This document shows positions 18,720-22,642 of a DNA stretch of 64,000 nucleotides, one piece after another. Source of the DNA: Escherichia phage Pu-Krd-SF1. The position numbers and the translations under genes are program-made. The first letter of the stretch is position 1, and every line of letters begins with the position of its first letter. The notes beneath the pieces were generated by a model. The model was not told the origin of the DNA. It did no database searches and was given only the letters and a program-made list of their open reading frames with translations. The stretch is from the sequence record PQ249395; one strand, written 5' to 3'.

Positions 18720-19193
18720 ATGTTATTGACTGGCAAATTATATAAAGAAGAAAAACAGAAATTTTATGATGCACAAAACGGTAAATGCTTAATTTGCCAA
18801 CGAGAACTAAATCCTGATGTTCAAGCTAATCACCTTGACCATGACCATGAATTAAATGGACCAAAAGCAGGAAAGGTACGTGGATTGCTTTGTAATCTCT
18901 GTAATGCAGCAGAAGGTCAAATGAAACACAAATTTAATCGTTCTGGCTTAAAGGGACAAGGTGTTGATTATCTTGAATGGTTAGAAAATTTACTTACTTA
19001 TTTAAAATCCGATTACACCCAAAATAATATTCACCCTAACTTCGTTGGAGATAAATCAAAGGAATTTTCTCGTTTAGGAAAAGAGGAAATGATGGCTGAG
19101 ATGCTTCAAAGAGGATTTGAATATAATGAATCTGACACCAAAACACAGTTAATAGCTTCATTTAAGAAGCAGCTTAGAAAGAGTTTAAAATGA
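18720..19193 (+). CDS. 49: Endonuclease VII (Holliday-junction resolvase)
   Basis: 157 aa, MLLTGKLYKEEKQKFYDAQNGKCLICQREL...HLDHDH; matches T4 gp49. Confidence 0.92.
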   Translation: MLLTGKLYKEEKQKFYDAQNGKCLICQRELNPDVQANHLDHDHELNGPKAGKVRGLLCNLCNAAEGQMKHKFNRSGLKGQGVDYLEWLENLLTYLKSDYTQNNIHPNFVGDKSKEFSRLGKEEMMAEMLQRGFEYNESDTKTQLIASFKKQLRKSLK

Positions 19194-20011
19194 ATGTAGT
19201 ATATAAACTATCATTTATTAGTAGAATTAATGCTAAAACCCCGCCATATTATTATATTGGAAGTAAAACCAATTGCACTTTTGACGGAACGAATATTATT
19301 GATAAAAATGGTAAATTTTATTATTCGTCTTCGTCATCTTCCGAATTTCAAAAAGCCCTGTTGAAAGAAACGCCGAAAGTTGAAATATTATATTTTCAAT
19401 TAGTCGGAGATGAACAAATAACTAGCATTGAAGCTGAATTTCAAAAGAATATAGAAAAAGATATATGGAATAAAGAGTATTTCAATTTAGCATATGCTGA
19501 CGGTCAATTTACAACGTATGGTATTTCTCCTTCTAAAGAAACTAGAGAAAAGCAATCAATAACCATGATTAAAAGAAATCGTAATAAAGGTAAAAATCAT
19601 GGATTTTATGGAAAGCATCATACTAATTTAGCCAGAAAGAAAATATCAGAAGCTTCTAAAAAATACTGGAAAGAAAATCCACATCGTGGATTTTCGCATA
19701 CAAAGGAAGCTAAAATTAAAATTGGAATTTCATCTTCTATCAGGCATAAAGGAAGTGGAAATCCGATGTATGGTGTAAAACCTTGGAAAACTCCGAGAGC
19801 AATTAAATCTGGTACTTGTATATTATGGTTAAAATACGCAGAAATTTTATATGATTATTTAAGTCCAGATTTTAAAAGTAAATCATCTATTTTTGCGGAT
19901 TTAAACTTACCGAAATTTAGAATTGATAATTTCATCAAAAGGTTTAAAATGGGTTGGAACCCATATTTAGACGAAGAATTTCAAAAGGATAAATTAGAAT
20001 TATGTCTTTAG
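19190..20011 (+). CDS. GIY-YIG-type homing endonuclease (free-standing, upstream of nrdD)
   Basis: N-terminal VVYKLSF...PYYYIGSKTN (GIY-YIG-like); NUMOD-like repeats GKHHTNLARKKISEA / GFSHTKEAKIKIG; 273 aa; 3' end overlaps nrdD start. Confidence 0.65.
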   Translation: MNVVYKLSFISRINAKTPPYYYIGSKTNCTFDGTNIIDKNGKFYYSSSSSSEFQKALLKETPKVEILYFQLVGDEQITSIEAEFQKNIEKDIWNKEYFNLAYADGQFTTYGISPSKETREKQSITMIKRNRNKGKNHGFYGKHHTNLARKKISEASKKYWKENPHRGFSHTKEAKIKIGISSSIRHKGSGNPMYGVKPWKTPRAIKSGTCILWLKYAEILYDYLSPDFKSKSSIFADLNLPKFRIDNFIKRFKMGWNPYLDEEFQKDKLELCL

Positions 20012-21819
20012 AGAAAGATGTTTTAAATTTTATTTCAAATAAAGATAAAGAATTAAATACCGAAAATGCCAACAAAGATTCTCGTGTCTTTCCAACAAAA
20101 AGAGATTTAATGGCTGGTATTGTTTCTAAACATATCGCTTGTAGTATTCTTCCAAGCCATATTGTAAATGCTCATAACGTCGGATTAATTCATTTTCATG
20201 ATTTAGATTACAGTATATCATTGCCTTTTACTAATTGCTGTTTAGTAGATTTAAAAGGAATGCTTGAGAACGGATTTAAGCTCGGTAATGCACAGATTGA
20301 AACTCCTAAATCAATCGGTGTTGCTACTGCAATTATGGCACAAATTACTGCACAGGTTGCTTCACATCAGTACGGCGGAACGACTTTTGCTAATGTAGAT
20401 AAAGTACTTTCTCCTTATGTTAAACGCACCTATGCAAAACATATTGAGGATGCAGAAAAATGGCAAATCGCTGATGCGTTGAATTATGCCCAATCTAAAA
20501 CAGAAAAAGACGTATACGATGCATTCCAAGCTTATGAATATGAAGTAAATACTCTCTTTAGTTCAAACGGACAAACGCCTTTTGTGACAATTACATTTGG
20601 TACTGGAACTGACTGGACTGAACGAATGATTCAGAAAGCAATTCTGAAAAATCGTATTAAAGGTCTTGGTCGTGATGGGATAACTCCTATTTTCCCTAAA
20701 CTTGTTATGTTCGTTGAAGAAGGTGTTAATCTTTATAAAGACGATCCGAACTATGATATTAAGCAGCTTGCTCTAGAGTGTGCAAGCAAAAGAATGTATC
20801 CTGACATCATTTCGGCTAAGAACAATAAAGCTATCACTGGTTCATCTATTCCTGTTTCTCCAATGGGTTGTCGTAGTTTCTTGAGTGTATGGAAAGATTC
20901 GACTGGTAATGAAATTCTTGATGGACGTAATAATCTTGGTGTTGTAACACTGAATCTTCCTCGCATTGCATTAGATTCTTATATTGGAACACAGTTCAAT
21001 GAACAGAAATTTGCCAAATTGTTCAATGAACGAATGGATTTATGTTTTGAAGCTTTGATGTGTAGAATTAGTTCCTTAAAAGGAGTTAAAGCTACTGTTG
21101 CTCCTATTCTTTACCAAGAAGGTGCATTCGGGGTCCGTCTTAAACCTGATGATGACATAATTGAGTTATTTAAAAATGGTAGAAGTTCAGTGTCCCTAGG
21201 ATACATCGGTATTCACGAATTGAATATTCTTGTCGGTCGTGATATTGGACAGGAAATTTTAACTAAAATGAATGCTCATCTTAAGCAGTGGACTGAAAGA
21301 ACTGGTTTTGCTTTTAGTTTGTATTCTACACCTGCTGAAAACCTTTGTTATCGCTTCTGTAAACTTGATACTGAGAAATACGGAAGTGTAAAAGATGTTA
21401 CTGATAAAGGCTGGTACACTAACAGTTTCCACGTTTCAGTAGAAGAAAATATTACTCCGTTTGAAAAGATTTCTCGCGAAGCCCCGTATCATTTCATTGC
21501 AACAGGCGGTCACATTTCTTATGTTGAACTTCCTGATATGAAAAATAACCTAAAAGGTCTTGAGGCTGTATGGGATTATGCTGCACAACATTTAGATTAT
21601 TTTGGTGTTAACATGCCAGTAGATAAATGTTTTACGTGTGGAAGCACTCATGAAATGACTCCTACTGAAAACGGATTTGTTTGTTCTATTTGTGGAGAAA
21701 CTGATCCTAAAAAGATGAACACAATAAGAAGAACTTGTGGTTATTTGGGAACTCCTAGCGTTGTTCCATGGAATTTAGGTAAAATGAAAGAAATGGTAAA
21801 ACGAGTAAAACATGCATAG
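20002..21819 (+). CDS. nrdD: Anaerobic ribonucleoside-triphosphate reductase NrdD (uninterrupted)
   Basis: 605 aa; C-terminal CFTCGSTHEM...CSICG zinc site and RRTCGYLG glycyl-radical motif; one continuous ORF. Confidence 0.92.
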   Translation: MSLEKDVLNFISNKDKELNTENANKDSRVFPTKRDLMAGIVSKHIACSILPSHIVNAHNVGLIHFHDLDYSISLPFTNCCLVDLKGMLENGFKLGNAQIETPKSIGVATAIMAQITAQVASHQYGGTTFANVDKVLSPYVKRTYAKHIEDAEKWQIADALNYAQSKTEKDVYDAFQAYEYEVNTLFSSNGQTPFVTITFGTGTDWTERMIQKAILKNRIKGLGRDGITPIFPKLVMFVEEGVNLYKDDPNYDIKQLALECASKRMYPDIISAKNNKAITGSSIPVSPMGCRSFLSVWKDSTGNEILDGRNNLGVVTLNLPRIALDSYIGTQFNEQKFAKLFNERMDLCFEALMCRISSLKGVKATVAPILYQEGAFGVRLKPDDDIIELFKNGRSSVSLGYIGIHELNILVGRDIGQEILTKMNAHLKQWTERTGFAFSLYSTPAENLCYRFCKLDTEKYGSVKDVTDKGWYTNSFHVSVEENITPFEKISREAPYHFIATGGHISYVELPDMKNNLKGLEAVWDYAAQHLDYFGVNMPVDKCFTCGSTHEMTPTENGFVCSICGETDPKKMNTIRRTCGYLGTPSVVPWNLGKMKEMVKRVKHA

Positions 21820-22642
21820 GTATTATATAATTTATAAAATAACAAATATAATTAATTCAAAGGAATATATCGGTGCGCATAGCACCGATAACATAAATGA
21901 CGGTTATATGGGGTCAGGAACACTGATTCGTGCCGCTTTATTAAAATATGGTAGAAAAAATTTTAATAAAGAAATTTTACATGTTTTTGATAATGAAAAA
22001 CAAATGTATGATAAAGAAGCTGAACTTGTAACCGAAGAGTATTGTCTAAAAGAAAATACATATAATATTAAACCTGGTGGAAAAGGTGGAACTGCCTATG
22101 AACAGACACTTGAACATCGCCGCAAAAATAGTTTAGCAAATAAAGGTAAAAAGAGAACAGAAGAAACTAAAATAGCTATTTCACGTGCTTTAAAGAAATA
22201 TAAACGTACGCCAGAGCATCAAGCAAATTTAAATAAAGCCGTAAGCATAGCTATGAAGCGAAAAGATGTTAGAAGTAAATTAGCTGGAGAGCGGTCTGAG
22301 AAAGATAAATTATCTATATCAAACGGTGTTAAAAAATATTACAATTCTTTGAGTGAAGAAGAACGCGAACTTCATCGCAAGCGAATTATTGAAGGTAAAA
22401 AGAATTCTCCCATGTCATTGGAATCTAGACAAAAGCTTTCAAAAGCTTTAAAAGGACTTCAAGTTGGTTCAAAAAATCCAATGTATGGAAAAATTTCTCC
22501 AACTAGCAAAACCGTTTCAGTTGACGGTATTAAATATGATTCAATTAAAAAGTGCTCAAATGCCATAAAAGTTTCTAGACATCTTATACTAAAACGCTGT
22601 AATTCTACTGATGAAGCTTGGAAAAATTGGATATTATTATGA
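21812..22642 (+). CDS. GIY-YIG homing endonuclease (Seg-like)
   Basis: N-terminal YYIIYKITNIINSKEYIGAHS; basic NUMOD-like C-terminal half; 276 aa; in the slot where T4 has mobC. Confidence 0.7.
   Translation: MHRYYIIYKITNIINSKEYIGAHSTDNINDGYMGSGTLIRAALLKYGRKNFNKEILHVFDNEKQMYDKEAELVTEEYCLKENTYNIKPGGKGGTAYEQTLEHRRKNSLANKGKKRTEETKIAISRALKKYKRTPEHQANLNKAVSIAMKRKDVRSKLAGERSEKDKLSISNGVKKYYNSLSEEERELHRKRIIEGKKNSPMSLESRQKLSKALKGLQVGSKNPMYGKISPTSKTVSVDGIKYDSIKKCSNAIKVSRHLILKRCNSTDEAWKNWILL

Follow-up and report, generated by a model that had tools for sequence, protein, structure and literature searches.

The anaerobic ribonucleotide reductase gene nrdD is considered here in a stretch of 64,000 nucleotides from Escherichia phage Pu-Krd-SF1 (sequence record PQ249395), which is referred to below as the window and supplies the positions used throughout. 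In the open reading frame (ORF) map, window positions 18700-23200 hold, in order, gene 49, an ORF that is called HEG-A in this text, nrdD, segH and nrdG. The nrdD gene is uninterrupted, and the ORF on each side of it encodes a free-standing homing endonuclease of the GIY-YIG/Seg type. The segment is T4-like (Tequatrovirus) and is shared at 100% identity by Escherichia phages Pu-Krd-SF5, SF6 and SF7, isolated from piglet faeces in Russia, whose annotations read, in the same order, endonuclease VII, homing endonuclease, NrdD-like reductase, homing endonuclease and NrdG. An initial annotation of the window, prepared from the letters alone, had placed these genes at coordinates that the ORF map confirms to the base. 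The features of the locus are as follows.

20002-21819, plus strand: nrdD, anaerobic ribonucleotide reductase large subunit, 605 uninterrupted codons (Pfam NRDD)
19190-20011, plus strand: HEG-A, an unnamed free-standing SegG-like GIY-YIG homing endonuclease gene of 273 amino acids
19190-19504, plus strand: predicted nuclease domain of HEG-A, residues 1-105, with the motif VVY(5)...R12...YYIG(24)SK...Y44xxS47...E81...N99
19577-19648, plus strand: NUMOD3 motif of HEG-A, residues 130-153, in the linker/DNA-binding region (Pfam NUMOD3)
21812-22642, plus strand: segH, a free-standing GIY-YIG homing endonuclease gene of 276 amino acids, with the motif IIYKITNIINSKEYIG
20002-20226, plus strand: HEG-A-linked variant 5' tract of nrdD (alignment, identity to RB14)
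21752-21819, plus strand: segH-linked variant 3' tail of nrdD, …GTPSVVPWNLGKMKEMVKRVKHA replacing …GNPNERGFNLGKNKEIMHRVKHQ (alignment of carriers and non-carriers)
20539-20540, plus strand: unoccupied position at which T4 nrdD carries its group I intron, between …GCTTATGAAT and ATGAAGTAAAT… (junction mapping against T4)
18720-19193, plus strand: gene 49 (endonuclease VII), lying immediately to the left of the HEG-A insertion (Pfam Endonuclease_7 and Endonuc-dimeris)
22639-23109, plus strand: nrdG, activating radical-SAM subunit, right neighbour of segH (Pfam Fer4_12, E 7e-49), annotated as nrdG in record PQ759885

Each gene of the segment overlaps the next: the stop codon of gene 49 overlaps the HEG-A start as ATGA, the end of HEG-A and the start of nrdD share 10 nucleotides, the nrdD stop and the segH start share 8, and the end of segH overlaps the nrdG ATG (22639) once more as ATGA. 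In T4, RB14, PP01 and KFS-EC3, the gene 49 stop directly overlaps the nrdD start instead. The G+C content is 27-31% across HEG-A and segH versus 33-38% in nrdD. The late-promoter motif TATAAATA does not occur in window 18000-24000, and HEG-A has no promoter of its own; similarly, a review describes segC, segF, mobA, mobC and mobE as having stop/start overlaps and no late promoter (PMC2988022). These overlaps probably couple translation of HEG-A and of SegH to that of the preceding gene, at a low yield.

The continuity of nrdD is evident from several comparisons. Its coding length equals that of spliced T4 nrdD, and its product covers the whole Pfam NRDD model (1-562 of 562, E 1.4e-170), with an additional Gly_radical match. 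An Rfam search of window 18000-24000 returned no RNA family even at E<=1; in the same search, the positive controls gave a group I intron in nrdD of both T4 and Yersinia phage fPS-2 at about 105 bits. Alignment with the unspliced T4 gene maps the 1033-nucleotide T4 intron after window base 20539 (in T4, the last base of exon 1 is T and the last base of the intron is G), where the window is identical in sequence to the intron-less phages RB14, PP01 and KFS-EC3. A cryptic intron within 20002-21819 is thus ruled out by the continuous ORF, the full-length Pfam match and the Rfam null result with working controls; nrdD carries no intron, and the T4-type intron after the codon-180 region is absent, just as the initial annotation had read the gene.

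That annotation had also contrasted the window with T4, and the T4 record bears out its account: gene 49 abuts nrdD, nrdD carries the 1033-nucleotide intron with I-TevII, and mobC stands between nrdD and nrdG. Its presentation of the intron-less gene as distinctive is overstated, however, because most Tequatrovirus records are intron-less. As judged by sampling a ranked list of 983 records matching the region, gene 49, nrdD and nrdG abut in about 2.86 kb in most of them, and both the intron and the endonuclease genes are missing; the intron-less nrdD is the common state, and T4 is the unusual one.

The upstream gene, HEG-A, is labelled "homing endonuclease" in PQ759885, and elsewhere in GenBank its labels are "homing endonuclease", "hypothetical protein" and, once, "SegG"; no description or name for it was found in the searchable literature. 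PHROG 7504, a "homing endonuclease" family, matches residues 1-124 (E 6e-34), and tblastn and BLASTP align the protein with T4 SegG at 51 of 128 identical residues (40%, E 9e-27). A homologue search finds the N-terminal 105 residues or so in about 20 homologous proteins, among which Y5, R12, P19, Y22, G24, S25, K26, Y44, S47, E81, N99 and A103 are invariant, and all 12 of these residues are present in T4 SegG. An AlphaFold model built on the family alignment has a predicted local distance difference test score (pLDDT) above 90 for residues 1-105 and is of low confidence over the C-terminal 100 residues. The best matches to the predicted fold are GIY-YIG nuclease structures, and Foldseek against viral models ranks gp32.1/SegG-type proteins on top, followed by group I intron endonucleases; HEG-A is accordingly modelled as a GIY-YIG alpha/beta nuclease fold. 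The NUMOD3 motif scores 29.7 bits versus a Pfam cut-off of 20.4, and a PDB search with the family profile picks up 1I3J, the DNA-binding domain of I-TevI (E 1.5e-4). The protein is modular, with a SegG-type nuclease domain, then a linker that contains NUMOD-type DNA-binding modules, and a C-terminal region distinct from both.

T4 SegG, formerly gp32.1, provides the closest comparison. A review counts it among the active free-standing GIY-YIG enzymes, with gene 32 as its target (PMC2988022, Table 1), and it shares with HEG-A the signature VY...R...PPYYYIGSK...Y..SS...E...FN. Both are free-standing, both lie just upstream of the presumed target gene, and both are missed by Pfam. The two differ in locus, as T4 SegG lies between genes 59 and 32 and HEG-A between gene 49 and nrdD, and in size, as HEG-A is 63 amino acids longer, with NUMOD3 repeats. 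Their similarity ends at about residue 126, and no similarity is detectable between the C-terminal halves, which suggests that HEG-A has a different DNA target from that of T4 SegG. Orthology to SegG is ruled out by the confinement of the similarity to residues 1-126 and by the different locus; on the protein comparison, HEG-A is a paralogue of T4 SegG, a separate unnamed member at another site. Further relatives of HEG-A occupy other classic seg sites, namely genes 59/32 (e.g., P0004) and genes 5/5.1 in metagenomic T4-like contigs.

Since curated models miss the GIY-YIG domain of HEG-A, its assignment rests on the fold comparison and the SegG match, and a number of observations weigh against it. 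Neither Pfam GIY-YIG (PF01541) nor SegE_GIY-YIG (PF19835) matches HEG-A, for which NUMOD3 is the only Pfam model to pass, and TIGR01453 reaches 23.1 bits versus a cut-off of 56. A phmmer search of HEG-A against the PDB found nothing, and the family profile matched there the I-TevI DNA-binding domain alone, missing the N-terminal domain. Likewise, hhalign against I-TevI aligned NUMOD3 alone, with a weak result for the nuclease domain, and hhalign against SegH was weak (E 0.008, probability 5%). Within the motifs themselves, YIG is exact (Y22-I23-G24) and E81 and N99 are invariant; GIY reads VVY (Y5), the two motifs are about 16 residues apart versus a canonical 10-11, and no invariant arginine follows YIG, an invariant R12 lying between the two motifs. 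On the alignment, R12 or K26 may take the place of the canonical arginine.

The sub-threshold model scores, the atypical spacing, the lack of an identified canonical arginine and the low-confidence C-terminus could also be expected if HEG-A were a GIY-YIG derivative that has decayed or been domesticated, has lost its DNA cleavage, serves as a DNA-binding regulator or neutral passenger and persists only by its linkage to nrdD. Damaged copies point the same way, with a frameshifted copy in Pu-Krd-SF3 and SF4, a truncated fusion in phage FL18 and a fragmented homologue in the metagenome contig L014. Nonetheless, such a derivative is unlikely, because the active T4 SegG has the same atypical motif pattern and the same invariant residues. 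T4 SegG also has no Pfam match, so the negative Pfam result reflects model coverage rather than absence of the domain. Moreover, the HEG-A ORF is full-length (at least 80% of the protein aligned) at 95% or higher amino-acid identity in 46 records, and its strict linkage to a sharply bounded foreign tract of nrdD, described below, is a prediction of active homing.

The downstream gene is identified by its sequence as segH, in the nrdD/nrdG position that is held in T4 by mobC. The name segH reportedly goes back to Sandegren, Nord and Sjöberg (Nucleic Acids Res, 2005), in whose account the gene is said to replace mobC in several T4-related phages; the study reportedly found SegH to be an active, mobile endonuclease that cuts close to its own gene, with site-specific double-strand cleavage and super-Mendelian inheritance in mixed infection reported for SegH orthologues. 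The T6 record AY262137 was deposited with the paper that named segH. The window protein is identical to T6 SegH (ABI48947.1) at 270 of 276 amino acids (98%, six substitutions), and the DNA is 98.7% identical to T6 segH (AY262137) and 99.9% identical to the PP01 gene annotated as segH. The order nrdD-segH-nrdG recurs in AY262137 and PP01, and the T6 and RB3 genes (AY262137 and AY262138) agree with the window gene in length, in the nrdD/nrdG position and in the variant nrdD 3' tail. MobC of T4, absent from the window, occupies the same intergenic position and belongs to the HNH family, a nuclease family unrelated to SegH.

SegH has the classical GIY-x10-YIG pattern (IIYKITNIINSKEYIG), a PHROG 314 match (E 2e-60) and a NUMOD3 match of 33.8 bits in Pfam, together with results below threshold for SegE_GIY-YIG (18.6 bits versus a cut-off of 25), for TIGR01453 (50 bits versus 56) and for the I-TevI DNA-binding domain. 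The initial annotation had taken both flanking ORFs to be GIY-YIG enzymes, and this is upheld by the SegG match and fold of HEG-A and by the orthology of the downstream gene to SegH, with the curated GIY-YIG models falling below threshold for both; placed among the known endonucleases, the upstream gene is a SegG-like paralogue and the downstream gene is SegH. The two are not duplicates of each other, as the NUMOD region alone aligns between them (E 0.006). The T4 enzyme I-TevII and its group I intron share the same host gene, and I-TevII is a GIY-YIG/NUMOD enzyme too, but HEG-A and SegH are neither intron-encoded nor close relatives of it.

HEG-A and segH are both genuine, conserved genes, and each is optional, being present or absent at one set position while the genomes remain colinear elsewhere. 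Among the approximately 668 related records matching at 90% identity or more, HEG-A is present at 97% nucleotide identity or above (97-100%) in 48 phage records and full-length segH in about 70, and most have neither gene. Both genes surround nrdD in 8 records from 7 phages, namely Pu-Krd-SF5, SF6, SF7 and OES_C-3 without an intron and Lv5cm, F26 and fPS-2 with the T4-type intron and I-TevII. About 5 double carriers would be expected under independent assortment (48 x 71 / 668), so the 8 observed give no sign of attraction or exclusion between HEG-A and segH. The double-flanked nrdD belongs to a set of arrangements that are common across the T-even pangenome and is already in GenBank; the initial annotation was right that the arrangement differs from that of T4, but it is not a new one, with segH already described and 8 double-flanked records deposited.

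The most informative feature of the locus, which the initial annotation had missed, is the divergence of the nrdD stretches linked to the two endonuclease genes. When HEG-A carriers (the window, SF4, OES_C-3 and fPS-2) were compared with non-carriers (PP01, KFS-EC3, RB14 and T4), the first 225 nucleotides of nrdD fell into two sharply different alleles according to HEG-A status, with about 25 amino-acid changes; the carriers are near-identical among themselves in this tract, and beyond nucleotide 225 carriers and non-carriers abruptly become almost identical. With 95% identity as the lower limit, the variant 5' tract is present in exactly 48 records, matching the count for HEG-A, and it is confined to HEG-A carriers. 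A donor lineage with the variant tract and without HEG-A was sought, and none was found, the next best match anywhere being 76.5% identical. Gene 49, by comparison, is 97-98% identical with or without HEG-A and shows no HEG-A-specific polymorphism up to the shared ATGA, so the linked divergence is wholly on the nrdD side, and the tract boundaries define a HEG-A cassette from 19194 to 20226.

At the other end of nrdD, the segH carriers (the window, OES_C-3, fPS-2 and PP01) share the variant tail at 21752-21819, with 10 of 21 residues changed, and SF4, KFS-EC3, RB14 and T4 lack it. The variant tail is present in 79 records, compared with about 71 that have segH. Flanking host-gene sequence is co-inherited with both HEG-A and segH, a footprint to be expected from intronless homing. 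The linkage is not absolute for segH: the first 30 nucleotides of nrdG in the window phage (compared over 22639-22670) are of the type typical of phages without segH, from which the segH carriers PP01, OES_C-3 and fPS-2 differ. The nrdG head of non-segH type places the right-hand recombination junction of the segH cassette at the segH/nrdG boundary. Compared with RB14, the three parts of nrdD show the following nucleotide identities and proportions of synonymous (pS) and nonsynonymous (pN) differences.

5' tract, nucleotides 1-225: identity 64%, pS 0.68, pN 0.27
Body, nucleotides 226-1749: identity 96%, pS 0.16, pN 0.004
3' tail, nucleotides 1750-1815: identity 59%, pS 0.63, pN 0.36

Ordinary mosaic recombination among T-even phages, proceeding without targeted cleavage, might in principle create such a pattern, as T-even genomes are known mosaics and the window and Pu-Krd-SF4 form a mosaic throughout the 64 kb, in which identity per block is 95-99.7% and further indels occur. 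This account is nevertheless highly improbable, because divergence in nrdD is restricted to the 225- and 68-nucleotide stretches that exactly abut the endonuclease genes, the tracts are only 59-64% identical, whereas nrdD elsewhere diverges by just 4%, and HEG-A and the variant 5' tract co-occur 48 to 48, no phage without HEG-A having the tract. The mobility reported for segH speaks against it as well.

The distant T4-like metagenome contig L014 (SRR27536177, positions 2188-3180 and 3123-4712) carries at its 49/nrdD junction a HEG-A homologue that is 58% identical and split into small ORFs, and the gene order there follows window 19186-20600 colinearly, with 69% DNA identity. The N-terminus of its NrdD has several of the variant residues in common with the HEG-A-linked tract, and this agreement, together with the homologue itself, suggests that the HEG-A cassette entered the Tequatrovirus gene pool from elsewhere.

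In principle the locus offers little novelty: it is textbook knowledge that T-even phages carry free-standing seg genes, that these cluster around genes for ribonucleotide reductase and that intronless homing occurs. Within that framework, the locus is likely to consist of two independent, optional, promoter-less homing cassettes at both ends of an intron-less nrdD, each spread by intronless homing. Free-standing T-even endonucleases are known to cut hundreds of base pairs from their own genes and to be inherited with co-converted flanks through double-strand-break repair (intronless homing, marker exclusion; PMC2988022); the same review credits the co-conversion tracts of free-standing endonucleases to Sandegren et al. 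2005 among others. In a mixed infection, the enzyme would cut the nrdD region of a co-infecting phage without the gene; the break would then be resected, and its repair, with the carrier genome as template, would bring in both the endonuclease gene and the part of nrdD next to it. Both cassettes most likely spread in this manner, and the divergent stretches at 20002-20226 (HEG-A) and 21752-21819 (SegH) would be their co-converted parts, in which the target sites are probably present in altered forms that are cut less readily. Against this last point, the divergent sequence could confer no immunity and simply have hitch-hiked along with the endonuclease genes.

The proposal that HEG-A is itself an active Seg-type enzyme, so far unnamed, with its target in the first 225 bp or so of nrdD, is put forward tentatively. 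The putative cut would fall within nucleotides 1-225 of nrdD in phages without HEG-A, and the linked allele would be the resistant or donor version. The unusually sharp edges of the cassette, at the ATGA of gene 49 and at nucleotide 225 of nrdD, narrow the search for a cleavage site to about 225 bp.

The two endonucleases might not be purely selfish; HEG-A and SegH might be retained for a benefit to the phage, either by excluding the nrdD-region markers of competitors or by rearranging or amplifying the locus. Seg genes are established agents of marker exclusion (PMC2988022), amplification driven by SegB has recently been reported, with anti-defence genes in T6 (PMC13096335), and phage FL18 has lost nrdD by a microhomology deletion exactly between the two endonuclease genes. 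At the same time, a patchy, low-frequency distribution with decayed copies speaks against strong selection, and the co-occurrence of HEG-A and segH is near the independent-assortment expectation; retention for phage benefit is thus judged quite improbable.

If HEG-A is an active enzyme with such a target, nrdD would be attacked at three places by different GIY-YIG elements, by HEG-A at the 5' end, by I-TevII at nucleotide 539 and by SegH at the 3' end, and the flanking endonuclease genes could carry entire nrdD alleles, intron-containing or intron-less, from phage to phage. Break-induced microhomology joining could then occasionally delete nrdD, as in phage FL18. A SegG-like gene stands at the 49/nrdD junction in about 7% of sequenced T4-like coliphages. 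Natural variants with zero, one, two or three elements, with decayed copies and with a deletion of nrdD form a ready-made series, useful for studying neighbouring selfish nucleases around one host gene.

The decay stages seen among these variants are typical of such endonuclease genes. For instance, Pu-Krd-SF3 and SF4 have one extra T in a T run after window 19922, which shifts HEG-A into a 245-codon ORF (L006, positions 991-1728) and represents either early decay or a homopolymer sequencing error. Phage PD112 (MH837626.1; L019, about positions 3646-3657) has an internal segH deletion of 577 nucleotides, equivalent to window 21951-22527, with both ends of the gene remaining and about 12 nucleotides common at the junction; its segH appears to be a decayed copy. 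In phage FL18 (PP400780.1; L009, positions 1513-2181), nrdD is almost wholly deleted, HEG-A codons 1 to about 200 being fused in frame to the last 22 or so codons of nrdD. The fusion joins window 19190-19797 to 21750-21819 at an AACTCC(G/T)AG microhomology, its junction on the nrdD side (about 21750) falls where the segH-linked tail begins, and segH and nrdG are intact downstream.

Around nrdD, the window and Pu-Krd-SF4 (PQ759884.1) differ solely in segH with the nrdD tail, besides the single-nucleotide insertion in SF4 after 19922. The two phages are not an isogenic pair separated by one segH homing event, a possibility ruled out by the mosaic over 64 kb: their identity is 95-96% over 1-4600, 99.7% over 5315-21755, 98.2% over 22639-30042, 94.8% over 30905-32564 and 99.3% beyond. 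The shifts in identity fall at or near the positions of endonuclease genes, which places these genes at the boundaries of exchanged segments.

Two further sites of this kind lie outside the nrdD region. At window 30026-30880 on the plus strand, between gene 47 (SbcD-like) and gene 46 (SbcC-like, 30896-32578), stands an ORF of 284 amino acids with an HNH-like motif (…EAHHVLPK…N…N…H…); as it has no counterpart in Pu-Krd-SF4, it looks like another optional mob-like endonuclease gene. Conversely, Pu-Krd-SF4 has, on the minus strand and immediately past gene 46, a gene labelled "homing endonuclease" (PQ759884.1, 135557-136273), where the window has only about 73 nucleotides (32564-32637); this is a second endonuclease gene carried by one of the two phages and missing from the other.

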